Source: Thermoanaerobaculia bacterium
GTDB lineage: Bacteria; Acidobacteriota; Thermoanaerobaculia; Multivoradales; Multivoraceae
Reading direction: 5' to 3'
Length of the DNA stretch: 64,000 nucleotides
NCBI GenBank assembly: GCA_963664405.1
Contig: OY761158.1
Span: forward strand, 320,001-384,000
Translations under genes and position numbers: made by a program
Notes under the pieces: generated by a model
Database searches by the model: none
What the model saw: the letters and a program-made list of their open reading frames with translations, nothing else
What the model was told of the DNA's origin: nothing
Part shown: in pieces, positions 6,359 through 35,772 of the stretch
Layout: each line of letters begins with the position of its first letter
How positions within the stretch are numbered: position 1 is the stretch's first letter

Positions 6359-6461
6359 CTTAGTCCAAGTGTTCGACAGTCTGCCGCGCGCCCAAGGCCC
6401 GAAGAAGGTGCGCTGCGGACAACACCCGGTGAAGTGAGGACACCGCAACCGTAGGTGAGCT

Positions 6462-7943
6462 TCACCTTCCTGAACTTCGCGGAGCTTGCGGAAAGAAGCG
6501 AGCCAGTCGCGCCTCTTCTGGAGGGGCCGTGACCAGCGAGACGCCGATCAGCACCACCGTCGAGACCAGAAACATCACAGCTACCGGCATCACACCGCTA
6601 TCGGCGACCGTATAGCCGGGAGATCCCCAGCCCCGCGAAAAGAAGAAGATCCAAAGTGCAACCACAGTGAAGACCGCACTGAGCGCTCCCGCCGCGCTCG
6701 CTCGACGCCAGTACAGGGCGGCGACGACGATCGGAAAAAGAGCGGCGAAGCCGGTAAAGGACCATACTGCGAGACCGAAGATACTGCTCCGCGCCACCAG
6801 TGAGAGAAGGAAGGTCGCAGCGATCACGGCAGCGATGAAGATGCGCCCAGCGCGTACTTTCGCCACCTCCTCCATCTTTCCACCATAGACATAGCGCTGC
6901 AGGATGTCCTGCGTGAACATCGCACCCAGGGCTAGAGACTGCGAATCTAGAGAAGACATGATCGCCGCCAACACCCCCGCCGCCAGCAGACCAGAAAGAA
7001 GTTCAGGTGCGTGCAGATCGATCATGCGTACCAGAATGGAGTTGGCGGCCGGTCCTTGGAGACCGGGGAAATCCAGATTGCCGAGGGCGCCAAGCAGTAC
7101 GCTCGGCACCCACACCACCGCGATGCACAGGGGGTAGAAGATGATCGGGGCTCGGAAGGTCCCGGCACTCTTTGCCGACAACCAATGGGAGAAGATGTGG
7201 GGGAACATCCCCACCGACAAGGGTATGAAGGTATAGGTGAAGAGCTCGATGCGCCCGAAGACTTCACCCCGGATCAGCAGCTCAGGCTGCTCGGTCGCCA
7301 GCCGGGCCATGGCGACTCCCAGTCCTCCCATCCGATCAAGAACGACGGCAACGGTCACTCCGCCGAGAATCATGAAAACCAGGGTCTGAAATGTGTTCAC
7401 CCAGGCGGTTCCACGCATCCCTCCGTAGCTGACGTAGGCCACCACTACCACCGACACCACCAGCGCACCGACCCACTGGGGGATGTCGCCACCGGTGATC
7501 TCGTTCAAGGTGATGCCGCCGCCGAGGATTCCAATCAGGAGGTAGGGCACCAACAGCGTCACCAAGACCACAAAGAGGACGATGCCGAGAGCCTCCGACT
7601 GGAATCGCTCGCGAAAGTACTCCACCTGGGTGAGAAAGCCATGCTCTTTGCCCAGCGCCCATACTCGTGTGCCGACGAAAAAGAAGACAACGGGCACCAC
7701 CAGCGCCGAGGAGGAAGCCATCAGCGAAAAGACGCCGATACCGACCCGATAAGACTCGGCCGAGGCACCGAGAAGCGCGAACGAGGTCATATGGGTGCCG
7801 AAGAGGGTCATCAGCAGAACGAAGGGTCCGATACTGCGATCGGCAACGAAGTACCCCTCTCCCGTACTGCGCAGAAAGCGATGGCTCTGCGCCCCTACCA
7901 GGAGCACTAGGACCAGATACAGGGCGAGGATCGCAAGAGTCAC
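6462..7943 (-). CDS. Sodium:solute symporter (SSS) family transporter
   Basis: About 13 hydrophobic segments; 'YFVADRSIG', 'GGMRGTAWVNTFQ', 'LAAIMSSLDSQ'. GTGA overlap with upstream gene. Confidence 0.92.
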   Translation of the reverse strand: MTLAILALYLVLVLLVGAQSHRFLRSTGEGYFVADRSIGPFVLLMTLFGTHMTSFALLGASAESYRVGIGVFSLMASSSALVVPVVFFFVGTRVWALGKEHGFLTQVEYFRERFQSEALGIVLFVVLVTLLVPYLLIGILGGGITLNEITGGDIPQWVGALVVSVVVVAYVSYGGMRGTAWVNTFQTLVFMILGGVTVAVVLDRMGGLGVAMARLATEQPELLIRGEVFGRIELFTYTFIPLSVGMFPHIFSHWLSAKSAGTFRAPIIFYPLCIAVVWVPSVLLGALGNLDFPGLQGPAANSILVRMIDLHAPELLSGLLAAGVLAAIMSSLDSQSLALGAMFTQDILQRYVYGGKMEEVAKVRAGRIFIAAVIAATFLLSLVARSSIFGLAVWSFTGFAALFPIVVAALYWRRASAAGALSAVFTVVALWIFFFSRGWGSPGYTVADSGVMPVAVMFLVSTVVLIGVSLVTAPPEEARLARFFPQAPRSSGR

Positions 7944-8194
7944 GGTGAGCCTCCCCCATCACTCACGCCCTCCGACCGCGGCGCGCCCGCTCCGCCCGAC
8001 TCGGCCGCCGAGAATTGGGCGGGCCAGGCAAAGCGCACCAGCAGCGCCATCGCACCGATGACTACGAAGCAGTAGAGCAGGTGGTAGGTCAAGCCGACCG
8101 GCAGACCGAGCAGCAGGCGCGCGTCCTGCCACAGCCACCAGTCGTTGTGGGCGAGATAGAGAACGAAAAGGCCCAGGTAGAGGAGGCGGCGCAT
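7940..8194 (-). CDS. DUF3311-like small two-TM SSS accessory protein
   Basis: 'MRRLLYLGLFVLYLAHNDWWLW..ARLLLGLPVGLTYH'; the stop overlaps the symporter start, as is usual for these small partners. Start reassigned to ATG 8194. Confidence 0.75.
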   Translation of the reverse strand: MRRLLYLGLFVLYLAHNDWWLWQDARLLLGLPVGLTYHLLYCFVVIGAMALLVRFAWPAQFSAAESGGAGAPRSEGVSDGGGSP

Positions 8195-8228
8195 ACCGTC
8201 GCTCGAGACCAACCCTCGCCTGGCGAAG

Positions 8229-9494
8229 CTAGACCGTTTTCTCCATCGCCGCGGGGTAGGCGTCGGCGGGGAGCTTGCACATCGTAGCCAGATGCGCGAA
8301 CAGATCTTCGAAATCGCGGTCGAAGACCTTCCCGGTGAGGATGTGGATGATGTCCTTCTGATGCTGCGGGTACTTCCGCAGAAAGTCTCCGAAGCTGAAA
8401 TCCTCGGAGTAGAAAGCATGTACCAGAGAGCGCACCGACGCTATGCCCTGCGCCAGCGTCGGGCCGAAAGTACCCAACCTTTCAGCGCTCCAGTCCTCGC
8501 ACGCAAAGGCCTCGATGATCGCGTCCGCGGCCATCTCGCCCGACTTCAGAGCGAGCAGGACCCCCGAAGAATAGACCGGGTCGATGAAGCTGTAGGCATC
8601 CCCCACCAACACCCAGCCGGGACCCGAGATACTCGAAGAGCGATAGGAAAAGTCGCGCAGGACCGAGATCTCGCGAGCCAGGCTGGCCCCCTCGAGGCGC
8701 TCTTGTACCGGCGCACATTTGCGCACCTCATCGAAGAAGGTCTCCTTGGGGCTGTTGCTACGCCCTCCTATCAGATAGTCGACGGCGCCGACGACACCGA
8801 CACTGACGCGGTCGCCGGGCATCGGGATATACCAGAACCACGACTTCGCATCTTCGGTGTGGAGGATCAATGTAGCGCCTTCATCGATGCCCTCGTCGCG
8901 CCTGCCTCCCTCGAAGTGGGTGAAGATCGAAGCATGCCTCAAATAGGGGTCGGTCTTTCTCAGGCCCAGCTTGCGGGCAAGGAGCGAGCTCTGACCGGTG
9001 GCGTCGACCACCACCTTGGCGCTGAGCTCGAGTGGCGCCTCACCCTCTACTTCAACCACCGCACCACGGGCGCGCTCACCCTCGAAGAGCACGTCTCGGA
9101 CCCTGGCGTTGCGAACCACTTCGGCCCCACGCTTCTGCGCCACCCCGAGAAGGAGGTCGTCGAACTCGTGACGGAGCACCTGCCAAGTAGCGGAGCTCTC
9201 GTGGTCGTTCTCTTCGAAGAAGTAGAAAGGTCGCGAGGCTCGCCCGCTCTTGCTAAAGAACTGGACCGAGTGCTTGCGTGGAAAGTGGCTCGCCTCCAAG
9301 GCTTCGACGACGCCGAGACGCTTCAGCGTCCAGTAGGTCTCCGGCATCAAAGACTCGCCGATCTTGAAGCTCGACGGCTGAAGCTTCTCCACCACCAGCA
9401 CAGACAGATCGCCCTCGGCGCAGAGGGCAGCGGTGGTCGCCCCGGCGGGGCCGCCGCCGATCACGATGACGTCGTAGTCGCGAGCTCTGATCAT
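8229..9494 (-). CDS. FAD-dependent oxidoreductase, flavin-dependent halogenase-like
   Basis: 'DVIVIGGGPAG', 'IGESL', 'FPRKHSVQF' (candidate catalytic Lys), 'WFWYIP' (WxWxIP), 'VGDAYSFIDPVYSSGV'. ATG 9494 lies 2 nt after the receptor stop. Confidence 0.8.
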   Translation of the reverse strand: MIRARDYDVIVIGGGPAGATTAALCAEGDLSVLVVEKLQPSSFKIGESLMPETYWTLKRLGVVEALEASHFPRKHSVQFFSKSGRASRPFYFFEENDHESSATWQVLRHEFDDLLLGVAQKRGAEVVRNARVRDVLFEGERARGAVVEVEGEAPLELSAKVVVDATGQSSLLARKLGLRKTDPYLRHASIFTHFEGGRRDEGIDEGATLILHTEDAKSWFWYIPMPGDRVSVGVVGAVDYLIGGRSNSPKETFFDEVRKCAPVQERLEGASLAREISVLRDFSYRSSSISGPGWVLVGDAYSFIDPVYSSGVLLALKSGEMAADAIIEAFACEDWSAERLGTFGPTLAQGIASVRSLVHAFYSEDFSFGDFLRKYPQHQKDIIHILTGKVFDRDFEDLFAHLATMCKLPADAYPAAMEKTV

Positions 9495-9496
9495 GT

Positions 9497-11611
9497 CTAT
9501 TGGCGGAAGTCGAGCGAGACGAAAACCGAGGTTCCCGCCGCCGGGATCACCGAAGTAGAACCGAAGCCTCGGGTGTCGTATTCCTCGTCGGTGATGTTCT
9601 TGAGGTTCAAGGCCAGCCGCCACTGATCGCGATCCCAGAACACCGAAGCGTCGAAGCTCAGGGCGTCCTCGACTTTGAACACGTTGTCCTCAGCGATGAA
9701 ATGAGAGCCAACGTAGCGCCCACCGCCACCGACACCGATTCCATTGGCGAAAGTCTTGGCGATCCAGAAATTCCAGGTGTCGCGCGGCGCAAAGGCCGGG
9801 TCATTGCCGGAGCGATCGAGCAGCAGCGGCGTAAAGAAGGGGGGAATAAGGAGGAGCTCGTTGAACTCGACGAGCTCCGAGTCGTTGTAGGAACAGGCGA
9901 GCTGATAGTGCAATCCGCCGATCGCGCCGGCCAGCTCCGCTTCGACGCCCTGCGATCGCTGGGTGCCGATCTGAGCGGTGAAGCCGTTATCGTCGAAGAT
10001 CGCCATGTTCTGGCGCTCGAGATGGTAAAGGGAGAGCGATCCCTGCATCCGGCGAGTAATGTCGCCTTTGAGACCGATCTCGATCTGCTCGCTCTCCTCG
10101 GGCTCCAGCTCTCCGGAAGCCCTCGTCGACGGCGGGGAGAAGCTTCTGCCCAGGTTGAGGTAGGTCGCGACGCGGGGCGAGGGAGAGTAGACCAGCCCGA
10201 GCAGCGGGCTCACCTCGTCGTCATCGCGAACCACACCGGCGAACCTGTCCTCGAACTCCATCATGTCTAGCCTGGCGCCCCAGAAGACCTGGAACTGGTC
10301 GGAGACCTGGACCCGATCGAGGAAGTAGGGAGCAATCACCTGGCGCCTCGAATCGCCGAACTGACTGAATCCCGGAATCGGCGGCCCAGGAGACGTCGCC
10401 GTCTCCACCGGATCGAAGAGCGAGATCGGCGGCAGCCCCGTGACGTCGATCTGAAACTCGTCCCGGCGCTCGGTGATCTCGAGCCCAAACAGCCAGCTGT
10501 GCTTCATGGTGGTGAGCTCGGCCTCGAATTGATCTCCTATAAAAAGCTGTCTGTCGTCGAGCGGAATCAAGATGCGAAACAAGAACAGATCGCCGGTCTG
10601 AATCGGGAACACTCCATTGAAAATGGTGCCGTCACTGCGCCAATCGAGCTCACTGGAGTACACCTTGTTGTGGAGACTCAGCGAGCCGCCGATCATCGAC
10701 TCCCAATCGACCCTCAGGCGTGTCACATCCTGAACCGAGAAGTCGAAGGGAGACTGGTAGGACCGCTTGCGGGGAAGATCGAAGCTCATCGCGCCCGAGA
10801 TCGGCAGACCCACATCCGGGGAATACTCGTTCTCCATCACTTCCACGTCGAAACGGAGCTCACCGCTCCTGCCCAAGGAGAGATCCAGCACGGGGTTCAA
10901 GGCGAAGCTGTTGTTGTCTTTGTCGTCACGGTAGCCCTCCGAATCGTGCGCCATCCCGTTGAGGCGAAAGCGCGCCCGGCCGTCGTTGTCGGCGAAGTTG
11001 ACATCGAAGCGGCCGCGCACAGTGTCATAACTGCCCGCGCCGACACCGGCCCTCCAGAACTTCCGGCTGGCCGGCTTGACGCGCAGCAGGTTGACCGTAC
11101 CGGCGAGCGGGTTGCCACCGTAGAGAAAGCCTCCTGGCCCTTTGAGCACTTCGACGCGTTCAACGTTGTAGAGCTGGTAAAAAGTAGCCTCGGGCTCAGC
11201 CACACCATCGGTCAGAACGAGGCCACCCGACAAAGAGTCGAAGCCACGAATGAGGAAGAAGTCGTTCACTCCCGCATTAGTGTGAACATTCACGCCACTG
11301 ACGTTGCGAAGTGCATCGGTCAGCGTCACGCTGTTCTGTTCGGTCGATAGCGCTCGAGTGACCACACTGACCGAAGCCGGAGTCAGCCGGAGAGGAACGT
11401 CTACCTTCGCGGCAATGCTCGCCGAGCGAGCCGCCGTTCCGGCACTTCCCTCGACAAAGATCTCTTCACTGAAGCGCTCCTCGCTGTCGGAGGTGGCCTC
11501 GGCCTTGTCCTGGGATAGAGCTGGAGTGACGACCAGAGCGAGGCACACGACCAGACCGATCAGGGCCCCTCTGTCGCGGGTCACTAGACCGGATTTTCTT
11601 TGATAGGACAT
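9497..11611 (-). CDS. TonB-dependent receptor (siderophore-receptor-like)
   Basis: Signal peptide; TonB-box-like 'EEIFVEG'; plug 'LTDALRNVSGV...IRGF...VERVEVLKGPGGFLYG'; C-terminal 'NLKNITDEEY...VFVSLDF'. Confidence 0.92.
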   Translation of the reverse strand: MSYQRKSGLVTRDRGALIGLVVCLALVVTPALSQDKAEATSDSEERFSEEIFVEGSAGTAARSASIAAKVDVPLRLTPASVSVVTRALSTEQNSVTLTDALRNVSGVNVHTNAGVNDFFLIRGFDSLSGGLVLTDGVAEPEATFYQLYNVERVEVLKGPGGFLYGGNPLAGTVNLLRVKPASRKFWRAGVGAGSYDTVRGRFDVNFADNDGRARFRLNGMAHDSEGYRDDKDNNSFALNPVLDLSLGRSGELRFDVEVMENEYSPDVGLPISGAMSFDLPRKRSYQSPFDFSVQDVTRLRVDWESMIGGSLSLHNKVYSSELDWRSDGTIFNGVFPIQTGDLFLFRILIPLDDRQLFIGDQFEAELTTMKHSWLFGLEITERRDEFQIDVTGLPPISLFDPVETATSPGPPIPGFSQFGDSRRQVIAPYFLDRVQVSDQFQVFWGARLDMMEFEDRFAGVVRDDDEVSPLLGLVYSPSPRVATYLNLGRSFSPPSTRASGELEPEESEQIEIGLKGDITRRMQGSLSLYHLERQNMAIFDDNGFTAQIGTQRSQGVEAELAGAIGGLHYQLACSYNDSELVEFNELLLIPPFFTPLLLDRSGNDPAFAPRDTWNFWIAKTFANGIGVGGGGRYVGSHFIAEDNVFKVEDALSFDASVFWDRDQWRLALNLKNITDEEYDTRGFGSTSVIPAAGTSVFVSLDFRQ

Positions 11612-11678
11612 AAGAACCACTTTCTTGGATTACAAGCAGACGATCGGCACAAGGTCTGATGGGCTGATCCGGTTGGGC

Positions 11679-13016
11679 TCAAGTATAGCGGGAGTCGCGG
11701 TACTGAGGATCGTAAAACTCGGGCAGGAGTTGGTCCACGCGCAAAAGCCCCGCGCGACTCAGGCGAATCTCGTTGTCCTCGACTTTCAGCATTCCTTGCT
11801 CGCAGAGCTTCTTCAGGGGGCCGTCGAAGACGTCTAGGGGGTCGACACCAAACTTGTCGAGAAAGTAGGCGCGGTCCGCACGGCCTGTTTTCAGCGACAG
11901 GATGAGCTCTCGAGTCAGCCGTTCTTCGGGCGTGGTGACGAAGGCTCGGGCTATGGGCAAGCCATCTCCGCCCGCCGCTTCGAGGTAGTCGCTCCAACGG
12001 TCGAAGTTCTGATAGTGAACGCCACTCATTTGCGAGAAGGAGGAGACACCCGCCCCGATCATGTCGCTGCCATGCCAAACCGCGTCGGCATAGACAAAGC
12101 GGGGTCGAGGCTTGCGGTCCGTCTTCAACACCGTATAGGCGCTCCACGCTTCGTACCCCGCCTCTTCGAACTTCTCGAACGCGTAGGCGTGCCATTCTCT
12201 CTTGAGACTCCATGAGGCGAATTCCTGCCCGTCGCCGCCTTCGAGCACTCCCTTCGAGTAGACCGTATTGAAGGGAAGCTCCATCTGATAGAGAGTGACA
12301 CTGTCGGGCTCGTAGGCGATGGTGCGATCGACGGTCTCACGCCAGGTGTCCCAGGTCTCCCCCACCATCCCTGCGATGAGATCGATATTCAGCTGGCGAA
12401 AGTCCAGCTCCGCAATCCAAGGACGAACGCGATCTATCTCAACGGATTCGTGAGCGCGACCGTTCTCGCGCAAAATCTCGTCGTTGAAATTCTCGACGCC
12501 GAGGCTGAGGCGGGTGACTCCGATCTCCCGGATCACTTCGAGCTTGGTCCTGGTCAGGGTGCCTGGCTCGCACTCGAAAGCGACCTCCTCCGCCTGATCC
12601 CATGGCAGTGCAGCTTTGAGCCTTGTAACCAGCGATCCGAGCTGTTTGGCCGAAATGTAGGAGGGAGTCCCCCCACCGAAGTAGATGAAGCGAAGCGGGC
12701 GCCCGGCAACGGCAGGCATCTGGCTGTAACGCTCCACCTCGGCCGCCATGCTGTCGAGGTAGTCGCGAACCTCATCACTGTTCTTGTCGATGAAGACTCT
12801 GAAGTAACAGAACTTGCAGCGGCGTCGGCAGAAGGGGATATGGAGGTAGAGACCCAGCGTCGCGTCGGGTCGAGGAGGCTGCCCCAGGGCCTCCTTTGCC
12901 TTGGGCACCGATTCGGCGTTCCAGAACGAGTAGGGAGGGTAGTTGGAGACGAAGACACTACCGACCTGGGTCGCCTCCTGGTCGAGTCTGGCTGTCGCTG
13001 GTTCTGCTATGGACAT
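11679..13016 (-). CDS. HemN-like (coproporphyrinogen III oxidase family) radical SAM enzyme
   Basis: 'LYLHIPFCRRRCKFC' (CxxxCxxC), 'YFGGGTPS', 'RLSLGVENF', 'NIDLIAG', HemN-like C-terminal domain. Confidence 0.9.
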   Translation of the reverse strand: MSIAEPATARLDQEATQVGSVFVSNYPPYSFWNAESVPKAKEALGQPPRPDATLGLYLHIPFCRRRCKFCYFRVFIDKNSDEVRDYLDSMAAEVERYSQMPAVAGRPLRFIYFGGGTPSYISAKQLGSLVTRLKAALPWDQAEEVAFECEPGTLTRTKLEVIREIGVTRLSLGVENFNDEILRENGRAHESVEIDRVRPWIAELDFRQLNIDLIAGMVGETWDTWRETVDRTIAYEPDSVTLYQMELPFNTVYSKGVLEGGDGQEFASWSLKREWHAYAFEKFEEAGYEAWSAYTVLKTDRKPRPRFVYADAVWHGSDMIGAGVSSFSQMSGVHYQNFDRWSDYLEAAGGDGLPIARAFVTTPEERLTRELILSLKTGRADRAYFLDKFGVDPLDVFDGPLKKLCEQGMLKVEDNEIRLSRAGLLRVDQLLPEFYDPQYRDSRYT

Positions 13017-13031
13017 GTTCCTGATGCGCGC

Positions 13032-14192
13032 TCAACCGAAGCAGTAGATCACTCCGTCGAGGCTAGAGATTACCAGTCGGCTCTGTGCGACACTGGGAGA
13101 CGCCGCAAAGGCGGAGCCAGTCTCATACGACCACACCTTCTCGCCGGTGACGATATCCAAGGCGAGAACCTCACCTCGTGTGGTGGCGAGAAACGCTCTC
13201 GAGCCGACGATCACCGCCGAAGAATCTACCCGAGAACCGGCAGGGTACGTCCACAGGGCCTCTCCCGTATTCGCGTCGAGCGCATGAACGATCTTGTCGC
13301 GACCGCCAATGATGACGAGCTCCTCGGTAGCCGCCGCGGACGCGTAATAGGGGAACTTGCGCTCGGGGTGCTCGTAGCTCCAAGACAACTCACGGGTCTC
13401 CAGGTCCAGACCCAGAACCTGGTTGCTGTAGGTGCCCACATAAGCGCGATTACCCACCACCGCCGGGCTTGCCCCGGTCTGGCCCTGGAGATCGATCTTG
13501 GTCTCGACCGAGCCATCCTCGAGGTTCACCAGCCAGAGATAGCCGTCACACCCCGAAACGGTCGTGAAGTCACCGAAAATCGCCGGTGTGCCATGAACGT
13601 AGCCATCGGTCTCCACCTGCCAGGCGAGCGAGCCGTCATCCGACTTCAGACAGTAGAGCGAGTTGTCGTAAGAACCGAAAACGAGATGGTCGCCGTGAAA
13701 ATTCGCTCCCGAAACGATGCCTGCAAGGGTCTCGAAGCTCCACTTCTCAACCCCCGAGGCGGTGTCGACGGCATGAAAGAAGCCCATCTCGTCGCCGAAA
13801 TAGACCACTCCGTCGCGGACCGAGGGCGACGACTTGATCTCTTCGCCAATCTCGAGCTTCCAGCGAATCTCGCCCACTTCGAGGTCGATGGCATAGAAAG
13901 AGCCGTCATACGCACCCACGTAGACAGTCCCGTCGACAATAGCGGCCGTAGACTCGATGTCACTGCCGACGTCAAGACTCCACAGCAGCTCAGGCTGATC
14001 GACCAGGGAAGTCCTGGCCACCCCGTCCAGGGTCGGTCCGCCTCGGAAGAGGGGCCATTGCGAGTTGTCGACCCCGGCGCCACGTTCCGAGGGCGCCGCG
14101 GAGTCGGCCACCTCTTCGGTGCGATCTGCACATGCGGTCATGAGGATCGGGAGGCAACAAGCGGCCAAGGTCCGGGCGGAAGCACGTCTCAT
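13032..14192 (-). CDS. PQQ-like/BamB-like beta-propeller lipoprotein
   Basis: Lipobox-like 'ILMTAC'; repeated 'SSP...G.VY.G..DG..YA.D...G...W' blades; ATGA overlap with the ADH stop. Confidence 0.85.
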   Translation of the reverse strand: MRRASARTLAACCLPILMTACADRTEEVADSAAPSERGAGVDNSQWPLFRGGPTLDGVARTSLVDQPELLWSLDVGSDIESTAAIVDGTVYVGAYDGSFYAIDLEVGEIRWKLEIGEEIKSSPSVRDGVVYFGDEMGFFHAVDTASGVEKWSFETLAGIVSGANFHGDHLVFGSYDNSLYCLKSDDGSLAWQVETDGYVHGTPAIFGDFTTVSGCDGYLWLVNLEDGSVETKIDLQGQTGASPAVVGNRAYVGTYSNQVLGLDLETRELSWSYEHPERKFPYYASAAATEELVIIGGRDKIVHALDANTGEALWTYPAGSRVDSSAVIVGSRAFLATTRGEVLALDIVTGEKVWSYETGSAFAASPSVAQSRLVISSLDGVIYCFG

Positions 14193-15373
14193 CGCACCGC
14201 CTCGTACAGAGCCTGCACCTCTGCTATCGGCAGAGGTCGAGGATTGTGGCCCAGAGTCCACTGCTCCATCGCCTGCTCCGAGAGCCCGCCGATCTCATCG
14301 CCGTCAACGTCCACCTCGTGCAAGTGGCCGGGCAGAGCGCCGAGCGTGCGCAGCTCTTCCAGGCGCGCCGCGAGCTCTTCGCCGCCGCCTCGCTCGCCCA
14401 CCGCCTCCAGCAGCTCGCCATAGAGACGGTCGACCGCGCAAGCGTTGGCGCGCACCACGGAAGGCAGCATCAGCGCGACCGCCACTCCGTGGGTGACGCC
14501 GAAGCTCGCCGTCAGGGGATTGGCGCAGGCATGGGCGGCGCCGAGCATCGAAGTCTCGATCGCTTCCCCGGCGAGATGAGCGCCGAGCAGCATGGAGCCC
14601 CAGATCTCTTCGCTGGCCTCGCCGTCGACGACTCTGCGATAGCCGCTGTCGAGAATTCGCCAGGCCTCACGTGCGTAGAGGCGAGAGAGCGGGTTTCCGG
14701 TCTTGGTCACGTAGCTCTCGACCGCATGCGCCAGGGCGTCGTAACCGGCGACCCGAACGACCTCGAGGGGAGCGGTCGCGGCTAGAAGAGGATCCATGAT
14801 CACCGCACTGAACCGGACTTTCTCGTCGCCGCAGGCCATCTTGATGTGCGACTTCTGCTGTGCGATGAGGGCAAAGGACTGGGCCTCGCTTCCGGTTCCG
14901 GCAGTGGAGGGCACGCCCACCGACGAGAGCATCGGCCGAGAAGCGCGATTGAACCCTCGATAGTCCTCCATACAACCGCCGTTGGTGGCGAGGAAGTTGA
15001 TCCCCTTGGCACAGTCCATGGAGCTGCCGCCACCAAGACCCACCAGGAAATCAACGGCCTCGGCGCGGGCGAGCGCAGCACCTCTTTCGACATGAGCCGT
15101 CGTAGGGTTCTCTTCCACACCGTCAAAGACCATAGCCTTGACCCCTGCGGCTCGGAGCGATTCGAGTGCGGTATCGACATGCCCCGCCTCTCGTATCCCG
15201 GGGTCGGTAACGATCAGCGCACGAGTCCCACCGATCTCTCGAACCAGGTCGCCAAGCTCGCGCAGCCGTCCACTTCCGAACAGCAGTCGTTCCCGGCGCT
15301 GGATTACGTTCCAGCCGGCCTGAGCTCCGGGCCTTCTGCCGCTGACCTCGTCCACAGACACTCTCTCTTCCAC
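14189..15373 (-). CDS. Iron-containing (group III) alcohol dehydrogenase
   Basis: 'GLGGGSSMD', 'PSTAGTGSE', and metal ligands in 'DALAH', 'AAHACAN', 'THG'. Confidence 0.92.
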   Translation of the reverse strand: MEERVSVDEVSGRRPGAQAGWNVIQRRERLLFGSGRLRELGDLVREIGGTRALIVTDPGIREAGHVDTALESLRAAGVKAMVFDGVEENPTTAHVERGAALARAEAVDFLVGLGGGSSMDCAKGINFLATNGGCMEDYRGFNRASRPMLSSVGVPSTAGTGSEAQSFALIAQQKSHIKMACGDEKVRFSAVIMDPLLAATAPLEVVRVAGYDALAHAVESYVTKTGNPLSRLYAREAWRILDSGYRRVVDGEASEEIWGSMLLGAHLAGEAIETSMLGAAHACANPLTASFGVTHGVAVALMLPSVVRANACAVDRLYGELLEAVGERGGGEELAARLEELRTLGALPGHLHEVDVDGDEIGGLSEQAMEQWTLGHNPRPLPIAEVQALYEAVR

Positions 15374-15406
15374 ACACTGATACGGGTCGACTGCCCGCCC
15401 GGTTCT

Positions 15407-16837
15407 CTACTCCCCACCACCGATGGCGAAAAGCTCGGAACGGGTAGCGACGTAGATGATTCCATCCTTGGCGATCGGGGTGGTGTATACCGCGCTGCCC
15501 ATGTTGTTCTCGGCGATGAGCTTCATCTCTCTACCGGTGGCGAGAACTGCGATGTCCCCGTCCTCATCGCCGATGTAGACCTTCCCATCGGCGACGAAAG
15601 CGGAGCCCCAGACGGCGGCAAAGGTGTCGTAGGTCCAGATATGCTCGCCGGTTTTCTGATCCAGGCAGTAGAGAAAGCCGCTGAGATCGGAGATGTAGAT
15701 CAGGCCGTCGTGGATCGCAGCCGTCGAAATGGTGCGAGAGAAGTCTTCGCCGCCGAAGTGCCACAGCGCCGCACTCTCGGTGACATCACCCGTCTTCGAC
15801 GCGTCGAGGGCGTAGAAGTGCCCCGGACCCTCGCCATGCTCCGGATCCTGCCCGACACCGATGTAGACCATGCCATCGAGGAAAACGGGAGTGGAGATGA
15901 TGTTATTGCGGGTGCCGGAGCCACCGAGCTCCCAGATCGAGTCTTTCGGGTTGGTGTCGAACTTCCAAATCACGTCGCCGGTTTTCGGCTCGAAGGAGTA
16001 AACCCATCCGTCGCCACCGGGGATCACGACCTGCTCTCGGCCCCCGGCGACACCGTAGGCGGCATTCGACCAGGTGCCGTGGAGGATGTTCTCTCCCGGC
16101 AAGGCGCTCTCCCAGACCAGCTCGCCGGTGTTCTTGTCGACCGCAACGAAGCTCGGGCCCAGCGGCGAAGGAACATTGACGTGCCCCTCGTCGACGCCGT
16201 TGCCGGTGGTGGCATAGATGAGATCACCCACGATCAGCGGCGATCCGGCAGCGAGATTATGGGGAAAGACATCGAGCTCCCCGATCATGTCGTAGGTCCA
16301 GATGATGTCCGCGTCATCCTCGCCTCTGTACAGCTCCTCGCTCCAGCCGTCGTTGTTGCCGTCGGCGAAGCCATCGAGGTCGGCCGCGACTACCTGCGCC
16401 CTATTCGAGATGTAGTAGACCCGGTCTCCCTCGATCGCGGGTGTCGAGCAAACGCCCTGCATTGGCCAATCATTGACCCTGCCCGCCGGCAGCTTGTCGT
16501 GGGTCGCCTGCCACAAAAACTCTCCATCGCTGGCGCTGAAGGCCATGACCACGCCCTTGTCGCCCTGGATCTCAGGCCGCAGCTCGCTCTCGTTGTTGGT
16601 GCCGACAAAGACACGACCCTCGAAGAAAACAGGACCGGCATAGGTCTGTGAGCCGACCTTCTTGCGCCATTTGATGTTCTTGCCGCTCCCCACATCCCAT
16701 TCACTGGGAAGTCCGGTCTCCGACGAGACCATGTTGCGGCTCGGCCCACCCCCGAACGTCGCCCGAGGCGAGTCCTCGGCACCGACCGCGGTCATGCTGG
16801 CAACCGATAAGAGTGCGATGGGAATCAGTGTCTTCAT
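15407..16837 (-). CDS. Secreted PQQ-like beta-propeller repeat protein
   Basis: Signal peptide 'MKTLIPIALLSVASMTAVGA'; Trp-docking repeats; acidic insert 'DLDGFADGNNDG'. ATG lies 2 nt after the upstream stop. Confidence 0.85.
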   Translation of the reverse strand: MKTLIPIALLSVASMTAVGAEDSPRATFGGGPSRNMVSSETGLPSEWDVGSGKNIKWRKKVGSQTYAGPVFFEGRVFVGTNNESELRPEIQGDKGVVMAFSASDGEFLWQATHDKLPAGRVNDWPMQGVCSTPAIEGDRVYYISNRAQVVAADLDGFADGNNDGWSEELYRGEDDADIIWTYDMIGELDVFPHNLAAGSPLIVGDLIYATTGNGVDEGHVNVPSPLGPSFVAVDKNTGELVWESALPGENILHGTWSNAAYGVAGGREQVVIPGGDGWVYSFEPKTGDVIWKFDTNPKDSIWELGGSGTRNNIISTPVFLDGMVYIGVGQDPEHGEGPGHFYALDASKTGDVTESAALWHFGGEDFSRTISTAAIHDGLIYISDLSGFLYCLDQKTGEHIWTYDTFAAVWGSAFVADGKVYIGDEDGDIAVLATGREMKLIAENNMGSAVYTTPIAKDGIIYVATRSELFAIGGGE

Positions 16838-16839
16838 AT

Positions 16840-19023
16840 TCAATTCACCGTAACCTTGAAGTTGTCGAAAGAGACCTCGGCGGCAGAATAGCCGGTCAGA
16901 CCGACCGAGCCCCGGGGTATCGGGTACGGATCCTCGACCGAGAGCGTCCATGTCGCCGGCTCGGGCGTTCCCCGGGGCCAGACCTTACCCTGTACAAGGG
17001 CTCGGTTCTCGTCGCTCTCGACTCGCAGTAACACGGTGTACCACTGGTCCATCTCCAGGGTGTAGTCGGCGGTCTCGTCGATCCGTAGCGTCGCCGTCCA
17101 GGAGCGTATCTGCACCCGTTGGTGGATCCCGAGCAAGTCGAAAATGTACCCGCTGTTGATCACTCCCCCATCGGAGCGTCTCCGGCCTTTTTGCTCGAGC
17201 TTGACGTCGACCTGGACACTGTAGCCGCTCAACGAGGGCGGCCCCATCAGCAAATGCGAGCGTAGGAGCCCGGCTTCGGCGACAGGCTTGACCAACACAG
17301 AGGCGTCCTCGGCACTTCGCTGCTCATAGCGCCCCGAGCCGATCCAGCCGCCGTGCTTGGGCCCCGAGAAGTCTTCGCTCCACGGCAGCGAGGGAAACAC
17401 ACGCACTCGCGCCGCGGCGGAGAGCTCGCCAACGCGAGCCGTCACGGTACCCGCCTCGAACCCGGCGTCGGCCTTGATCGACAGAGTGTTCCCCACCGGG
17501 GCGCCTCCCACGCCCTTGCTCTCCCATACCGCTCCACCGGCATTCCCCAGCGGACGGCCCTTGGCGTCAAACGTGGCGATCTCGAACTCAACAGACTCTC
17601 CCGGGCTCAGGGTCGTTTCGGCAGGGATGACGAGCAGCGTCGCGGGCTTACCCGAGGCCGCGCCTTCATCGCCGAGCTCGGGAGCCGGCGACTTGGTGAT
17701 GCCGAATGGGGCGTCTTTACTGCCGAGGCAGTAGACACCCTCCTCGGTGGTGAAGTAGATCCGTCCGTAGGCCACCGCCGGCGAGCCGTAGAGCTCGGCG
17801 TAGCGACCGCTGGCGACCGTCACCTCGTTTCGGCTAAGCACCTCCGCACCCTCAGCACGGGGTCGAAGGATAGTGAAACGGCCGTTGGTCTCGGGCGCGT
17901 AGATCTTGCCGTCGGCCCACACCGGCGAGCTCTTACCGACCGTGCCAATGCTCTCTTCCCAGTAGACCTGCCCGGTCTCGAGGTCGAGTGCGGCGAGATT
18001 CCCCGAGTTGTCGACGACATAGACGCGTCCATCGTGCACCATAGGGGAGGGGAAGCCGATCTGCTGCTCATTCCAACGCCACCGTTCATGAGTCTCTGTG
18101 ACATCTCCACTGCCGGTCGCATCAATTGCAACCACCCGCCCCAGGGTGCCTTCGTCGATGTTCTCCTCCGAATGCGAGATATACACCGTCGTTCCGTGGA
18201 TTACTGGAGAGACATTGATGCCCCGCTTCGACAGGTTGAAGCTCCACACCTTCTTCCCGGTCCTCGACTGGAGCGCATAGACGTGACCATCCGCGTTGCC
18301 GCCAATCATCAGCCGCTGGCCCCCGATCACGGCAATCACCGGAACCGACTGGGTATTGCGGTCGAAGACCATGACGCCGGGGGTCGACATCCACGCCACC
18401 GCCCCCGTCCTCTTGTCAAAGGCGAAATAGCGATGTCGAGGCGGTCCCTGCGGGCCCCAGCTACCGTTGATCATGTTGACGATGACCCGGTCCTCGTCGA
18501 TAACCGCGGAGGCGGTGCGCCCACCATAGCCCTCGAAGCGGCCGAACTCTTCTTTCAACGAGCGAGACCATACGATCTCGCCTTCGTTGTCGAGACAGAG
18601 AAAAGTACCGTTGACCAGCTGAGCGTAGATGTACCCGGTGTCGGGATCACCGACGAGCGAGGCCCAGCCCACCCGGTTGAAGGGCACAGTGGTGAGATAG
18701 AGGCTGAAGCTCTTCTCCCAGACCTTGCTGCCATCTTCTGCATCGAAGGCGGCGATGACCGCCTGCCGGTGCACACCGTCGCCGGTGCGCCCATTGACGA
18801 ACACTCTCCCGCCCATGACCACCGGCGTCGAGCGGCTGATGAAATCTTGCCGCCACAGCAAATTCTCGCCTTCGGGACTCCAGGTCGAGATCAACCCGGT
18901 CTCGCCTGAGACTCCATTCTGACGCGCCCCCCGCCACGACGGCCACTCCTCCGCCAACGACGCAGCAGCTACCAAGCCGCTGAGTCCGATCAAAAAGGCC
19001 ACATGATGCCTTCTCGTCTTCAT
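16840..19023 (-). CDS. Large secreted PQQ-like beta-propeller protein with C-terminal Ig-like and lectin-like domains
   Basis: Signal peptide; 'EEWPSWRG', propeller repeats; C-terminal 'WSEDF...GSVGLTG...VSFDNFKV' jelly-roll-like end. GAGG RBS. Confidence 0.85.
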   Translation of the reverse strand: MKTRRHHVAFLIGLSGLVAAASLAEEWPSWRGARQNGVSGETGLISTWSPEGENLLWRQDFISRSTPVVMGGRVFVNGRTGDGVHRQAVIAAFDAEDGSKVWEKSFSLYLTTVPFNRVGWASLVGDPDTGYIYAQLVNGTFLCLDNEGEIVWSRSLKEEFGRFEGYGGRTASAVIDEDRVIVNMINGSWGPQGPPRHRYFAFDKRTGAVAWMSTPGVMVFDRNTQSVPVIAVIGGQRLMIGGNADGHVYALQSRTGKKVWSFNLSKRGINVSPVIHGTTVYISHSEENIDEGTLGRVVAIDATGSGDVTETHERWRWNEQQIGFPSPMVHDGRVYVVDNSGNLAALDLETGQVYWEESIGTVGKSSPVWADGKIYAPETNGRFTILRPRAEGAEVLSRNEVTVASGRYAELYGSPAVAYGRIYFTTEEGVYCLGSKDAPFGITKSPAPELGDEGAASGKPATLLVIPAETTLSPGESVEFEIATFDAKGRPLGNAGGAVWESKGVGGAPVGNTLSIKADAGFEAGTVTARVGELSAAARVRVFPSLPWSEDFSGPKHGGWIGSGRYEQRSAEDASVLVKPVAEAGLLRSHLLMGPPSLSGYSVQVDVKLEQKGRRRSDGGVINSGYIFDLLGIHQRVQIRSWTATLRIDETADYTLEMDQWYTVLLRVESDENRALVQGKVWPRGTPEPATWTLSVEDPYPIPRGSVGLTGYSAAEVSFDNFKVTVN

Positions 19024-19137
19024 CTCGCCTCTTTCTGCATTTTGTGCCTATGAACCGCCTCGAAGATCACTGAGCTCACGGAGAGCGGGCAAACCTCCAC
19101 CCTTCAGGGTCAAGACGCCGCCGAGCGCATTGTCGTT

Positions 19138-20586
19138 TCAGTCTCCCACAAGGGAGATCAACTGAGGAGGCGAATCTCGGCCAGATTCCGGCATTGCGAG
19201 AGCGTATAGCACCTCCGAGGTCAAGAGATACAGAGACTCGCCGTCAGCCACGAGAGAGCGAAAGATGGGCGCACCCATAACGATCTCGGAGAGCACTTCG
19301 AGCGTGCGCCCCGCCCGCAGCACTGTCACCTCTCCATCGGTATCGGCAACATAGACCTTGTCCTCGACAACCAGCGGCGAAGCCCAGATCGAAGCGAGGG
19401 CGTCGTAGCGCCAGTAGAGCTCCCCCGAAGCGGCATCGAGGGCGACAACGAACCCGTCGAGGTCCGCGGCGTAGACCAACCCCTCTTCCACCGCCACCGT
19501 CGCAATAGCTCGACCAAAGCTCTCCCCACCGAAGTGCCAGGCGACTTCCGGCCCGATCTCCGGCCCGGAGGGAGCTTCTCCGCTCGGCAGATCGAGACTC
19601 CACAGACTTCCCGGCGCCGAGCCCTGCTCCGGGTCGCGCCCCATCGGGAAGTAGGCACGCCCCTCACTCACCACCGCCGAGGCAACCAGCGCATGTCGAT
19701 CTCGACCTACGGGAGCCTCTCTATCGGGGGCCGCATTGCCGTCGAATTTCCACAGCAGCATTCCACTCGGGTCGAACGAGTAAAGCCATCCGTCACCGCC
19801 GGGAAAGAGAACTTGGGACCGCAGGGCGCCGCCGCCGATTGCGGTCGGGCTCGCCCACTGCCCGTCTACTAAGCCCATCCCAGGGGAGGCGTCCTTCCAC
19901 CGCAGCTCGCCACTCTCTCGATCCACAGCGATGAAGCTCGCTGCCTCCGGCGCCGGCACCCGTCCACTATCGTCGATCCCGTTGCTGGTGACGACAAAGA
20001 CGAGATCGCCGACGACCGCCGGGGTGGACGCCGACATGAAATGCGGCACCACGCCCAGCTCCTCCCTCATGTCCAAGCGCCAGACAACGTCGGCATCCTC
20101 TTCTCCTTGGCGAGACTCCCCAACAAACGGACCGTCGTTCTCGTCGTCGATAAAGCCCTCGCTGTCGACGCACATCAGCTCTCCGCGATTCGACACGTAG
20201 TAGACGCGATCGTCAACGACGGTGGGGGTCGAGCAGAGCCCCTCCATCGGAAAATCGAGCTCCTCCGAGAGTTTCTGGTGCGTCGCCTGCCACAAGAACA
20301 TCCCGTCGGCGGCCTGAAACACCATCAGCACACCCAGGTCCGCGGACTTTGTCGGGTCGCGGGGCCGAGCATTGTTGGTACCGACGAAGACCTTGCCTCC
20401 AGCAACGACCGGGCCGGCGTACGACACCGAACCGACAGCGGCGCTCCACCGCACGTTCTCGCCCGTCTCAGCGCTCCAGCGAAGTGGCAGCTCGCCAGCC
20501 ACCGCGCCGGCGACGAGGGGATGACTTACAACGACGACGACGATCCTTCCCCCGAAACGCCGCAGCTTCGGTCTCATCTCTCTCAT
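19138..20586 (-). CDS. PQQ-like beta-propeller repeat protein (paralogue of 15407..16837)
   Basis: Shares 'YAGPV...G.VFVGTNN', 'FLWQATH.KL', 'PM.G.CSTP', 'RVYY.SNR' and 'PGGDGW.YSF' with 15407..16837. Confidence 0.85.
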   Translation of the reverse strand: MREMRPKLRRFGGRIVVVVVSHPLVAGAVAGELPLRWSAETGENVRWSAAVGSVSYAGPVVAGGKVFVGTNNARPRDPTKSADLGVLMVFQAADGMFLWQATHQKLSEELDFPMEGLCSTPTVVDDRVYYVSNRGELMCVDSEGFIDDENDGPFVGESRQGEEDADVVWRLDMREELGVVPHFMSASTPAVVGDLVFVVTSNGIDDSGRVPAPEAASFIAVDRESGELRWKDASPGMGLVDGQWASPTAIGGGALRSQVLFPGGDGWLYSFDPSGMLLWKFDGNAAPDREAPVGRDRHALVASAVVSEGRAYFPMGRDPEQGSAPGSLWSLDLPSGEAPSGPEIGPEVAWHFGGESFGRAIATVAVEEGLVYAADLDGFVVALDAASGELYWRYDALASIWASPLVVEDKVYVADTDGEVTVLRAGRTLEVLSEIVMGAPIFRSLVADGESLYLLTSEVLYALAMPESGRDSPPQLISLVGD

Positions 20587-20620
20587 CGATCCGCAGTCTA
20601 CCGAGATGCCGGGTCACGCC

Positions 20621-20657
20621 AAAAAGGAAACGCCCCGGCATTGCCAGCCGGGGCGTT
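20621..20657 (-). terminator. Rho-independent terminator downstream of the VWA-domain gene
   Basis: Perfect 11-bp stem AACGCCCCGGC/GCCGGGGCGTT with a 7-nt loop, followed on the minus strand by TCCTTTTT. Confidence 0.8.
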
Positions 20658-23891: not shown

Positions 23892-23937
23892 CTCTGAAGC
23901 GAGGAAGCTACTCGGGTTGCGACACAATAGCTCCGCC

Positions 23938-25943: not shown

Positions 25944-25963
25944 CCTGCTATCATCTGCGCCGC

Positions 25964-26971: not shown

Positions 26972-26982
26972 GGGAAAGCCCG

Positions 26983-35758: not shown

Positions 35759-35772
35759 CCCCAACCCCCTTC

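Follow-up and report, generated by a model that had tools for sequence, protein, structure and literature searches.

An operon-like cluster of beta-propeller, HemN-like radical SAM and halogenase-like genes in Acidobacteriota, Latescibacterota and Planctomycetota

In the D-alanylgriseoluteic acid phenazine pathway of Pantoea agglomerans, EhpF, a truncated ANL enzyme of about 360 amino acids, is encoded beside EhpG, an ALDH-family protein of about 470 amino acids (PDB 3l2k, 3hgu; adjacency and gene sizes as given in a table of PMC11278526). Loci that combine a chorismate lyase with a flavin brominase are represented by Bmp6/Bmp5 of Pseudoalteromonas and by the proposed BaaA/BaaB of Planctomycetales strain 10988. 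In the model put forward for the latter, 3,5-dibromo-p-anisic acid would arise by formation of 4-hydroxybenzoate from chorismate followed by bromination, and BaaB resembles Bmp5, with about 44% similarity (10.1101/723874). Judged from the accessible part of that preprint, this proposal is the nearest published biosynthetic idea for the genes considered here. Clusters of a halogenase and an AMP-binding gene, termed 'Halo_AMP', have been listed from metagenome-assembled genomes of sponge symbionts in Acidobacteriota, Latescibacterota and Poribacteria, in a preprint whose accessible sections also remark on radical S-adenosylmethionine (SAM) enzymes, TonB genes and a frequent, poorly characterized pyrroloquinoline quinone (PQQ)-like domain (bioRxiv 10.64898/2026.08.03.742642). 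Here we analyse a stretch of 64,000 nucleotides (the window) from a Thermoanaerobaculia bacterium of the Acidobacteriota (contig OY761158.1, positions 320,001 to 384,000), in which ten co-oriented genes at positions 6462-20586 encode four beta-propellers, an iron-containing alcohol dehydrogenase (Fe-ADH), a HemN-like radical SAM enzyme, a TonB-dependent receptor (TBDR), a halogenase-like flavoprotein, a small membrane protein and a symporter.

We file this cluster as known enzyme kinds in a new combination, a proposed halogenase-containing aryl-acid tailoring pathway together with an unexplained envelope module. Compared with the EhpF/EhpG pathway, phenazine genes are missing here, and a halogenase, a radical SAM enzyme, secreted propellers and transporters are added. 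Like the Bmp6/Bmp5-type loci, related loci in Planctomycetes encode a chorismate-lyase-fold protein, located between the radical SAM enzyme and the halogenase; this gene is absent from the window. Compared by description only, on the accessible portion of the source, the Bmp5-like BaaB is a different type of flavoenzyme from the Bmp2/PltA-like enzyme of the window, and the same portion describes no radical SAM enzyme, propellers or transporters (10.1101/723874). The 'Halo_AMP' study, as far as its accessible text goes, is a descriptive mining effort with a different architecture (A, FDH, rSAM, P450) and without analysis of function, backbone or phyletic distribution (10.64898/2026.08.03.742642). 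Full-text literature searches returned no characterisation of the system, which one preprint touches on in its accessible sections (10.64898/2026.08.03.742642), and literature searches returned no description of the combination of a halogenase, a HemN-like radical SAM enzyme, secreted propellers and two-way transporters.

Gene order and conservation of the cluster

Judged from their own sequences and those of their relatives, the ten genes form a real operon-like cluster that is kept in at least three little-studied phyla. The genes, in the order of transcription, and the hairpin that precedes them are as follows.

19138..20586, minus strand: Prop1, secreted BamB/PQQ_2-like beta-propeller with a hydrophobic N-terminus (Pfam PQQ_2, 87.5 bits)
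16840..19023, minus strand: Prop2, secreted propeller with a C-terminal DUF1080/3-keto-disaccharide-hydrolase-like domain (PQQ_2, 156.5 bits)
15407..16837, minus strand: Prop3, secreted 8-bladed BamB-like propeller
14189..15373, minus strand: Fe-ADH, cytoplasmic iron-containing alcohol dehydrogenase, an aldehyde/alcohol oxidoreductase (Fe-ADH, 160.3 bits; ADH_Fe_C, 102.8 bits)
13032..14192, minus strand: Prop4, lipoprotein-like BamB/PQQ_2 propeller (Beta-prop_ACSF4, 198.7 bits; PQQ_2, 157.1 bits)
11679..13016, minus strand: HemN-like radical SAM enzyme (Radical_SAM, 75.6 bits; HemN_C, 29.2 bits; both above cut-off)
9497..11620, minus strand: TBDR, siderophore-receptor-like outer-membrane receptor (Plug, 76.9 bits; barrel, 133.1 bits)
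8229..9494, minus strand: flavin-dependent halogenase-like enzyme (FDH) of the short 'variant B' type, 421 amino acids (Trp_halogenase, 92.5 bits)
7940..8194, minus strand: small DUF3311-like membrane protein (Pfam DUF3311, 20.5 bits, below the cut-off of 30)
6462..7943, minus strand: sodium:solute symporter (SSS) of the inner membrane (SSF, 139.9 bits; gathering score 22.8 bits)
20619..20657, minus strand: intrinsic-terminator-like hairpin at the end of the upstream VWA gene (11-bp stem with 9 G-C pairs, T-rich tail)

Starts of the open reading frames (ORFs) are the most plausible choices, and domains were assigned by Pfam and NCBIfam profile searches read against curated cut-offs. All ORFs, overlaps and gaps that the original prediction had given for the ten genes were found again on the sequence, and the profile searches agreed with its calls of four propellers, Fe-ADH, Radical_SAM with HemN_C, Plug with a TonB barrel, Trp_halogenase/FAD and SSF. 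The stop codon of the DUF3311-like gene overlaps the start of the symporter gene in a GTGA at 7940-7943, a junction read from the sequence, and that of Fe-ADH overlaps the start of Prop4 in an ATGA at 14189-14192; by these overlaps the DUF3311-like gene is coupled to the symporter gene, and Prop4 translationally to Fe-ADH. Gaps of 2 nt separate TBDR from FDH (9495-9496) and Prop2 from Prop3 (16838-16839), 15 nt separate Prop4 from the radical SAM gene, and the remaining gaps amount to 33, 58 and 34 nt with the chosen starts; the largest, between Prop1 and Prop2, is 114 nt. By eye, the N-termini of Prop1, Prop2, Prop3 and TBDR resemble signal peptides and that of Prop4 a lipoprotein signal, and those of Fe-ADH, the radical SAM enzyme and the flavoprotein do not look like signal peptides. 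The proposed insulation of the cluster from the upstream gene by a terminator also held: the hairpin at 20657-20629 is the strongest of 19 terminator-like sites between 2800 and 22700 (mean for shuffled sequence, 13.9), and no comparable site was found within the ten-gene cluster in that scan. The VWA gene, set apart by this terminator, was rejected as a member. Among public RNA runs, a search listed none that contained the locus.

Relatives were collected by scanning one genome per species, which gave 521 stretches with a relative of the radical SAM gene; the best 80 loci were kept. Neighbours were counted by tblastn with the window proteins, the denominators being the loci with enough flanking DNA. 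Fe-ADH and Prop4 lie directly upstream of the radical SAM gene in 53 of 71 loci, and Prop4, counted alone, is upstream in 58 of 76; 40 of 66 have a propeller of the Prop1/3 type upstream. On the downstream side, the flavoprotein is present in 49 of 57 loci and the symporter in 40 of 55. The sources of the 80 loci are Acidobacteriota (Thermoanaerobaculia, Holophagae, Vicinamibacteria), one Latescibacterota chromosome and about 20 Planctomycetota records, and because it is conserved across phyla the arrangement is more than chance. The original prediction had spoken of a candidate undescribed system, had proposed to ask whether the homologues co-occur in other genomes and had pointed to similar neighbourhoods in Planctomycetes. 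The system is indeed conserved and apparently uncharacterised, the homologues do co-occur and are syntenic, and the Planctomycetes neighbourhoods exist.

Co-occurrence was followed in 201 genomes sampled evenly from the phylum, including the window genome and two unpublished genomes (G152, G049) positive for all four queries. The radical SAM gene occurs in 49 of the 201 (E <= 1e-80), with a distribution that is patchy by family. Prop4 accompanies it in 49 of 49 genomes and is present in 9 further ones; the EhpF-like protein described below is found in 48 of the 49, the miss being a genome (G108) that is 83% complete, and in 7 further genomes, all among the 9 that carry Prop4 only. The halogenase is encoded in 47 of the 49, being absent from G076 and G190. 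Three genomes have a halogenase without the radical SAM gene: the matches are weak in G024 (unpublished) and G154 (E 3e-71, 4e-65) and strong in G195, a genome 72% complete. In five genomes of cultured Planctomycetes, reached through the loci, the radical SAM gene stands apart from these neighbours, and in 5 of 5 the halogenase and Prop4 are encoded elsewhere. These five include Zavarzinella formosa DSM 19928 and Planctomicrobium sp. SH527, so that cultured carriers exist.

Prop4 neighbourhoods cut from six genomes were then compared. Four genomes with Prop4 and EhpF and without radical SAM enzyme or halogenase (G016, G122, G157, G178) keep the order Prop2-PropA-(FeADH)-Prop4. The two genomes that lack the halogenase and have their radical SAM gene elsewhere, G076 and G190, show FeADH-Prop4-TBDR-SSS-ABC-FtsX-c18, which is the window order minus exactly the radical SAM and halogenase genes. 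Since the backbone is kept without these two enzymes, they are optional tailoring steps: the propellers, Fe-ADH, the acid reductase and the transporters are the core, and the radical SAM enzyme and the halogenase are add-ons acting on whatever compound this core handles. This corrects the emphasis of the original prediction, which had drawn attention to the latter two.

The wider system and its proposed function

All ORFs of the 80 loci were clustered with a crude GC3-based gene caller, the counts being lower bounds. A GT4 glycosyltransferase was present in at least 32 loci, a 4HBT/YbgC-type thioesterase in at least 18, a LolD-like ABC ATPase (LolD 257.5 bits, DevA 155.8 bits) in at least 37 and an FtsX permease of about 1135 amino acids, with weak LolCE and DevC matches, in at least 38. 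A homologue of EhpF was found in at least 6 loci and its ALDH-family partner in at least 5, a PaaK-like aryl-CoA ligase in at least 3 and in the window, a small membrane protein (c18) in at least 8, and a protein of about 180 amino acids (c28), encoded between the radical SAM enzyme and the flavoprotein, in at least 5 Planctomycetes loci. In locus L012 the genes follow one another in one direction as c18-Prop2-PropA-EhpF-EhpG-FeADH-Prop4-rSAM-PropA'-TBDR-FDH-DUF3311-SSS-GT4-thioesterase-ABC-FtsX. On this sequence evidence, the ten genes are only part of a conserved system of about 16 genes, not the whole of it as first supposed, the rest being scattered in this genome. The GT4-thioesterase-ABC-FtsX genes lie at C1:245141-250858, about 70 kb from the cluster, an EhpF/EhpG-like pair at C1:936472-939001, about 600 kb from the window, and a chorismate-lyase-fold gene at C1:3279576-3280028, each as a single best copy. 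The two-membrane import route of the original prediction stands in so far as TBDR and SSS are present; as an exporter belongs to the system, it is only half of the transport picture.

A supply and activation set for an aromatic acid would fit several of these members, namely the chorismate-lyase fold, the PaaK-like ligase, the 4HBT thioesterase, the EhpF/EhpG-like reductase and Fe-ADH. The adenylating enzyme of locus L011 (c21) matches EhpF (PDB 3l2k) with 156.6 bits (E 8e-45), and the pair of the window genome (L084:3938-5011 and L084:2467-4065), with AMP-binding and Aldedh matches, shares 58% and 47% identity with that of L011. Both loci encode a truncated, EhpF-homologous ANL enzyme beside an ALDH-family protein, a putative two-protein carboxylate reductase. 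A role in converting a carboxylate to an aldehyde was reportedly proposed for EhpF/EhpG in the paper on the EhpF structure. Searches of Pfam, NCBIfam and the PDB with the c28 sequence gave nothing useful, and only the fold search was informative: the c28 model (pLDDT 92.9) has a chorismate-lyase/UTRA fold and matches AF1396/DUF98 (TM 0.65-0.78), E. coli UbiC (TM 0.54-0.61) and many GntR effector domains. The modelled fold is compatible with a stand-alone chorismate lyase and is no proof of one. The chorismate-lyase-fold gene of the window genome (L086:3556-4110, minus strand; G000:C1:3276000-3283000) is divergent from a class IV aminotransferase gene (Aminotran_4, 133.4 bits), of a family that includes aminodeoxychorismate lyase.

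Gene identity, order, co-occurrence, motifs and folds are what we observed; everything beyond them we infer. Tentatively, and with a confidence that falls somewhat short of even, we propose that the ten genes make up one half, for tailoring and for the envelope, of a system that makes, tailors, exports and recaptures a small compound derived from an aromatic acid, most likely of the hydroxybenzoate type. The acid would be formed from chorismate by the chorismate-lyase-fold protein encoded elsewhere in the genome, or would be taken up from outside. The flavin-dependent halogenase would halogenate the ring, as its conserved catalytic motifs suggest, and the HemN-like radical SAM enzyme, judging from its family, would add a one-carbon unit to the same scaffold or perform related radical chemistry. 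The carboxylate would be activated by the PaaK-like ligase or the EhpF-like adenylating enzyme and reduced to the aldehyde by the EhpG-like enzyme, and Fe-ADH would reduce the aldehyde to the alcohol. GT4, the 4HBT thioesterase and the LolD-like ABC ATPase with its giant FtsX permease would complete the compound and pump it out; in the periplasm, secreted BamB-like propellers of three kinds would bind or process it; TBDR and the DUF3311/SSS symporter would bring it, or a derivative, back in. Such a logic of making, exporting and recapturing would be that of a metallophore, a cofactor or a signal.

This reading uses all parts of the system, and several points weigh against it. Product, substrate and activity have been assigned for no member. 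Neither the chorismate-lyase-fold gene nor the reductase pair nor the exporter adjoins the ten genes of the window, and they are counted as members on the strength of synteny elsewhere and of co-occurrence. The fold of c28 is common to UTRA ligand-binding domains, so catalysis is not established by the fold. The substrates of short 'variant B' halogenases are usually bound to a carrier protein, which is missing here. Conservation is unusually high for secondary metabolism (56-74% for the EhpF-like protein and 47-65% for the radical SAM enzyme across the phylum). Fe-ADH and the ALDH-like protein might just as well work oxidatively, as part of a catabolic route, and the role of the propellers is left without explanation. 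Finally, a single genus, Candidatus Multivorans, supplies many of the 80 loci, so that the loci, like the related genomes in general, are not independent.

The host phyla, although poorly cultured, make up abundant members of soil, water, wastewater and sponge communities, and this gene set is among their best-conserved ones without an assigned function; standard gene-cluster rules would miss it. Once the product is identified, a substrate could be assigned to an orphan radical SAM clade, the function of BamB-like 'PQQ-repeat' propellers outside the BAM complex would become apparent, and a halogenated metabolite, metallophore or cofactor of wide occurrence might come to light.

The radical SAM enzyme and the halogenase-like flavoprotein

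The radical SAM enzyme carries CxxxCxxC within HIPFCRRRCKFCYF, YFGGGTPS, which contains the GGGTP SAM motif, and a HemN_C domain, and so belongs to the HemN-like branch. Homologues number in the thousands; the best 120 are 61-85% identical, and the few that carry names come from Acidobacteriota, Thermoanaerobaculia, Poribacteria and others. At 126 of 445 positions, among them those of HIPFCRxRCxFCYF and YFGGGTPS, identity reaches 95% or more in 69 homologues across three phyla. The protein scores below all curated NCBIfam cut-offs: STM4012 (180.9 bits, cut-off 380), ChuW/HutW (TIGR04107; 168.7 bits, cut-off 400), HemN (TIGR00538; 168 bits, cut-off 324.95), HemW (TIGR00539; 133.2 bits, cut-off 205.4) and HemZ. 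Among PDB entries it matches HemN (1olt) with 118.8 bits over residues 49-429 and NocN (9p2u) with 102.2 bits over residues 52-246, in the N-terminal half only; a search of the ESM Atlas returned only generic clusters of the 'coproporphyrinogen-III oxidase family'. A separate HemW gene is present in the genome at C1:6559927-6561144 (L002:1453-2670) and passes the HemW cut-off with 218.4 bits. By these data the enzyme belongs to a separate, highly conserved HemN-like clade that is neither HemN nor HemW nor ChuW, in agreement with the original prediction, which had taken it to be distinct from HemN/HemW orthologues.

These data bear on a reading in which the locus serves heme uptake combined with anaerobic heme degradation or heme synthesis, that is, ChuW/HutW or HemN working with a heme receptor. 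The adjacency of a HemN-family radical SAM gene to a TBDR gene and the ChuW/HutW match are what it can call upon. The scores below the ChuW, HemN and HemW cut-offs and the separate HemW gene led us to reject it; moreover, the receptor reaches 63.3 bits on the heme-receptor model, whose cut-off is 316.85, genes like ChuX, ChuY or ChuS are not present, and the partner genes are a halogenase and propellers. We consider this reading hardly tenable.

HemN, NocN and ChuW/HutW share CxxxCxxC, GGGTPS and HemN_C with the enzyme of the window, which has neither a heme nor a thiopeptide context. Class C radical SAM methyltransferases of the NosN/NocN type transfer a methyl or methylene group to an sp2 carbon with the use of two SAM molecules. 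Our preferred guess, drawn from family resemblance, is that the enzyme may catalyse a one-carbon transfer of this kind, the alternative being an oxidative decarboxylation of the HemN type; we know of no sequence signature that separates class C methyltransferases from HemN-type decarboxylases. Second, more distant copies (42-43% identity) are found in some genomes (G142, G054, G153, G175). In one of them the second radical SAM gene is immediately followed by a second halogenase gene (44% identity; G142:C146:3401-5967), so that a paralogous module exists. One orthologue (G015:C24:116675-117970) is broken by two stops, one TGA and one TAA, and may be a pseudogene or reflect a sequencing error.

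The flavoprotein matches flavin-dependent halogenases of the PDB, with 188.5 bits for 8zop, 181 for Bmp2, 174 for PltA, 151 for CndH and 136 for CmlS; Mpy16 was also matched. Its GxGxxG FAD motif reads VIGGGPAG. The WxWxIP motif named in the original prediction is present in the window protein as WFWYIP. The lysine of HFPRKHSVQF (F..K.SVQF), which lies about 70-80 residues from the N-terminus and aligns with K in 8zop and Bmp2, is one that we take to be the catalytic lysine of halogenases. In 49 homologues G.GP.G, the W, F, W, I and P of WFWxIP and this lysine are each conserved at 95% or more. The flavoprotein thus carries the tested sequence hallmarks of a flavin-dependent halogenase (GxGxxG, WxWxIP and the lysine) and is predicted to be one. 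It differs from Bmp2, PltA, Mpy16, CndH, CmlS and 8zop in having no carrier protein, non-ribosomal peptide synthetase (NRPS) or polyketide synthase (PKS) nearby, and from known short halogenases in being paired almost obligately with a HemN-like radical SAM enzyme (47 of 49 genomes). The Pfam scan showed no flavin reductase gene in the cluster. As the original prediction had stated, NRPS, PKS, carrier protein and pqq genes were not seen in domain scans, and searches of the genome for PqqE and, as a weak negative discussed below, for PqqC came back empty.

A variant context was observed in three loci (L070 9968-21296 and L071, both Gemmataceae; L068, Zavarzinella). There, co-oriented genes encode, in order, the radical SAM enzyme, a GcvH-like protein, a 4Fe-4S protein, a second radical SAM protein (NirJ/AhbD-like, far below cut-off), a squalene-hopene-cyclase-like protein, a DUF116/polyprenyl synthase fusion, a 181-amino-acid protein without an assigned family, a halogenase and a major facilitator superfamily transporter. 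This gene content hints that the pair of radical SAM enzyme and halogenase can also tailor a prenylated compound.

The variant is relevant to another reading, an envelope lipid or glycolipid pathway in which a fatty or aryl acid would be reduced to the alcohol, glycosylated and moved to the outer membrane by the Lol/DevCA-like ABC-FtsX transporter, the BamB-like lipoprotein and the other propellers being periplasmic assembly factors. The ABC ATPase is LolD-like and DevA-like, its permease has the weak LolCE and DevC matches, a GT4 and a YbgC-like thioesterase are among the members, the Prop3 model has the BamB fold, Prop4 is lipoprotein-like, and the Gemmataceae variant places the radical SAM enzyme and the halogenase with a polyprenyl synthase and a squalene-hopene-cyclase-like gene. 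However, the adenylating enzyme matches EhpF, an aromatic-acid enzyme. Assignment of c21/c25 to a LuxE/LuxC fatty-acid reductase was tried and rejected, as neither Pfam model appeared among the matches at E up to 0.01 and EhpF was matched instead. Flavin halogenases, furthermore, need electron-rich substrates, and TBDR and the symporter would be left without a role. We therefore hold both the lipid pathway and the assembly role of the propellers to be very unlikely.

Transporters, propellers and neighbouring genes

TBDR scores 220.4 bits on the siderophore-receptor model TIGR01783, just under its cut-off of 223.5. By tblastn, 7 of 55 loci have an orthologue of the window type in this position; a non-orthologous TBDR on the opposite strand, whose similarity to the window TBDR is that of generic plug and barrel only, fills the gap in 36 loci. 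In the clustering of the 80 loci and the window, the two forms at the same position number 12 loci (window counted) and 36 loci. For the symporter no substrate-specific NCBIfam model was passed, the nearest named families being PanF (126.8 bits) and PutP (110 bits), far below their cut-offs. The preceding small gene is conserved directly upstream of the symporter gene in related loci; this part of the earlier DUF3311 call stood, and its family match is below the Pfam cut-off.

Another gene for aromatic-acid handling lies in the window beyond the VWA gene.

24651..25943, plus strand: PaaK-like aryl-CoA ligase with AMP-binding and AMP-binding_C_2, probable accessory member outside the ten genes

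It reaches 198-203 bits on the PaaK models, below cut-off, is 52% identical to the in-cluster ligase of L011 and is the only such gene in this genome. The ligase gene belongs to a divergent operon with a TAXI-TRAP transporter (25940-28908). The whole plus-strand run of four genes (23917-28908) encodes a 245-amino-acid protein without a family match, the ligase, a TAXI-family TRAP receptor (NMT1_3, 207.7 bits) and a fused DctM-type permease, and from this content might serve to take up and activate an aromatic acid. Between the VWA gene and this operon, at 22601-23800 on the minus strand, there is a Mutator-family transposase gene (Transposase_mut, 293.6 bits), whose insertion may have helped to separate the ligase from the cluster.

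The transporters and the ligase operon are among the grounds for a catabolic or salvage reading, which we regard as unlikely but deserving serious attention. An external aromatic alcohol, aldehyde or (halo)phenolic compound would enter through TBDR, the periplasmic propellers and DUF3311/SSS; inside, Fe-ADH and the ALDH-like protein would oxidise it, the PaaK-like ligase would activate it for central metabolism, and the flavoprotein and the radical SAM enzyme would remodel the ring, a set of steps that we likewise hold to be unlikely. The window itself has only importers (TBDR, SSS) and no exporter, TBDR comes in two non-orthologous forms at the same position, and the TAXI-TRAP transporter adjoins the ligase. 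Fe-ADH, an ALDH-like protein, an aryl-CoA ligase and a thioesterase make up a classical set for turning an aromatic alcohol into an acyl-CoA, and the backbone without halogenase and radical SAM enzyme retains TBDR and SSS. This route nevertheless has no place for the lyase-fold gene or for the conserved GT4 and MacB/Lol-type ABC-FtsX pump, the latter two being in keeping with export. The partner of the ALDH-like protein is a truncated adenylating enzyme of the EhpF type, a pairing described as reductive; in Planctomycetes, the position of the chorismate-lyase-fold gene next to those for the radical SAM enzyme and the halogenase speaks for a supply de novo; the conserved lysine and WxWxIP favour halogenation over dehalogenation; and ring-cleavage genes were not seen. 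The make-and-recapture proposal accommodates both transport directions.

The propellers form three distinct paralogous types in one operon, one with a DUF1080-like tail, which sets them apart from BamB and other 8-bladed PQQ-like propellers. Prop1 is a paralogue of Prop3 (43% identity), and its orthologues lie upstream of Prop3 in related loci. Prop2 has the signal peptide MKTRRHHVAFLIGLSGLVAAASLA and a 3keto-disac_hyd match of 24.6 bits, just below the cut-off of 26.8; full-length orthologues occur in Acidobacteriota, Latescibacterota and Planctomycetota loci. Prop3, with the signal peptide MKTLIPIALLSVASMTAVGA, is the most conserved propeller (63-72% identity in Acidobacteriota/Latescibacterota loci), and Prop4 starts with the lipoprotein-like N-terminus MRRASARTLAACCLPILMTAC. 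The AlphaFold model of Prop3 (pLDDT 83.2) is 8-bladed. In the PDB it is matched best by BamB chains (TM 0.74-0.82, normalised on BamB as the target), on which the model superposes although Prop3 is about 100 residues longer; further matches are tetrathionate hydrolase, YxaL and PedH (TM 0.41-0.48). The four propellers reach 58-162 bits on the BamB model TIGR03300, below its cut-off of 285.2, so that the fold alone is in common, and 21-83 bits on the PQQ-dehydrogenase model TIGR03075, below its cut-off of 480; the cut-off of TIGR03074, 833, is also not reached. Membership of the quinoprotein/PQQ family was rejected on these cut-offs and on the better fit of the Prop3 model to BamB than to PedH. 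The original prediction had let the propellers bind or use the product; they proved to be BamB-like and not quinoprotein dehydrogenases, and a role in binding or using the product is putative. The best NCBIfam match of Fe-ADH, ErcA-like, scores 245.7 bits, below the cut-off of 550.

PQQ, with its quinoproteins and its PqqU receptor, offers the analogy for a further reading, in which the cytoplasmic enzymes would build, and TBDR/SSS salvage, a new redox or prosthetic molecule needed by the secreted BamB/PQQ-like propellers. It draws on the strict co-occurrence of Prop4 with the enzymes (49 of 49), on the translational coupling of Prop4 to Fe-ADH, on a conservation at the level of primary metabolism and on the precedent of tetrathionate hydrolase, one of the fold matches, for 8-bladed propeller enzymes that are unusual or work without a cofactor. 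The genome, 97% complete, yielded neither PqqC nor PqqE; the PqqC negative is weak, as the control query matched 0 of 14 control genomes. On the other side, the propellers match BamB best and not quinoprotein dehydrogenases, the propeller backbone exists in genomes without radical SAM enzyme and halogenase, and no redox partner such as a cytochrome c is found in the cluster. We rate this reading as quite unlikely. The same low rating applies to a specific form of it, in which an optionally halogenated, C-methylated hydroxybenzyl-type cofactor would be made, exported and scavenged for the 'empty' BamB/PQQ-like propellers of Acidobacteriota, Planctomycetota, Latescibacterota and relatives. If this is true, periplasmic propeller enzymes would have a second cofactor system, independent of PQQ. 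The cofactor and envelope-glycolipid readings are narrower variants.

Downstream of the symporter, the co-oriented DUF5916 (4112-6448, minus strand) and DUF3047 genes, 13 and 18 nt from their neighbours, were rejected as members of the cluster. DUF5916 occurs in 1 of the 80 related loci, where it is upstream of the cluster, and in this genome four paralogues are 50-53% identical to it and a fifth is 34% identical; three DUF5916 paralogues stand in tandem at G000:C1:2220535-2227698. No short ORF resembling the precursor of a ribosomally synthesized and post-translationally modified peptide fits the intergenic gaps of the cluster, the largest being that of 114 nt; no systematic search for one was made. 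Upstream of the Multivorans loci (L013 1-2196, L015) we observed an AAA_21 ATPase and DUF4276 pair and a UvrD-like helicase, which look defence-like and are unrelated to the system. Elsewhere in the window, a fifth PQQ_2/BamB-like propeller gene (31605-32945, minus strand) lies directly downstream of the gene for a 965-amino-acid M16 peptidase (32867-35764); the longest ORFs of the two overlap, and the start of the propeller is uncertain.

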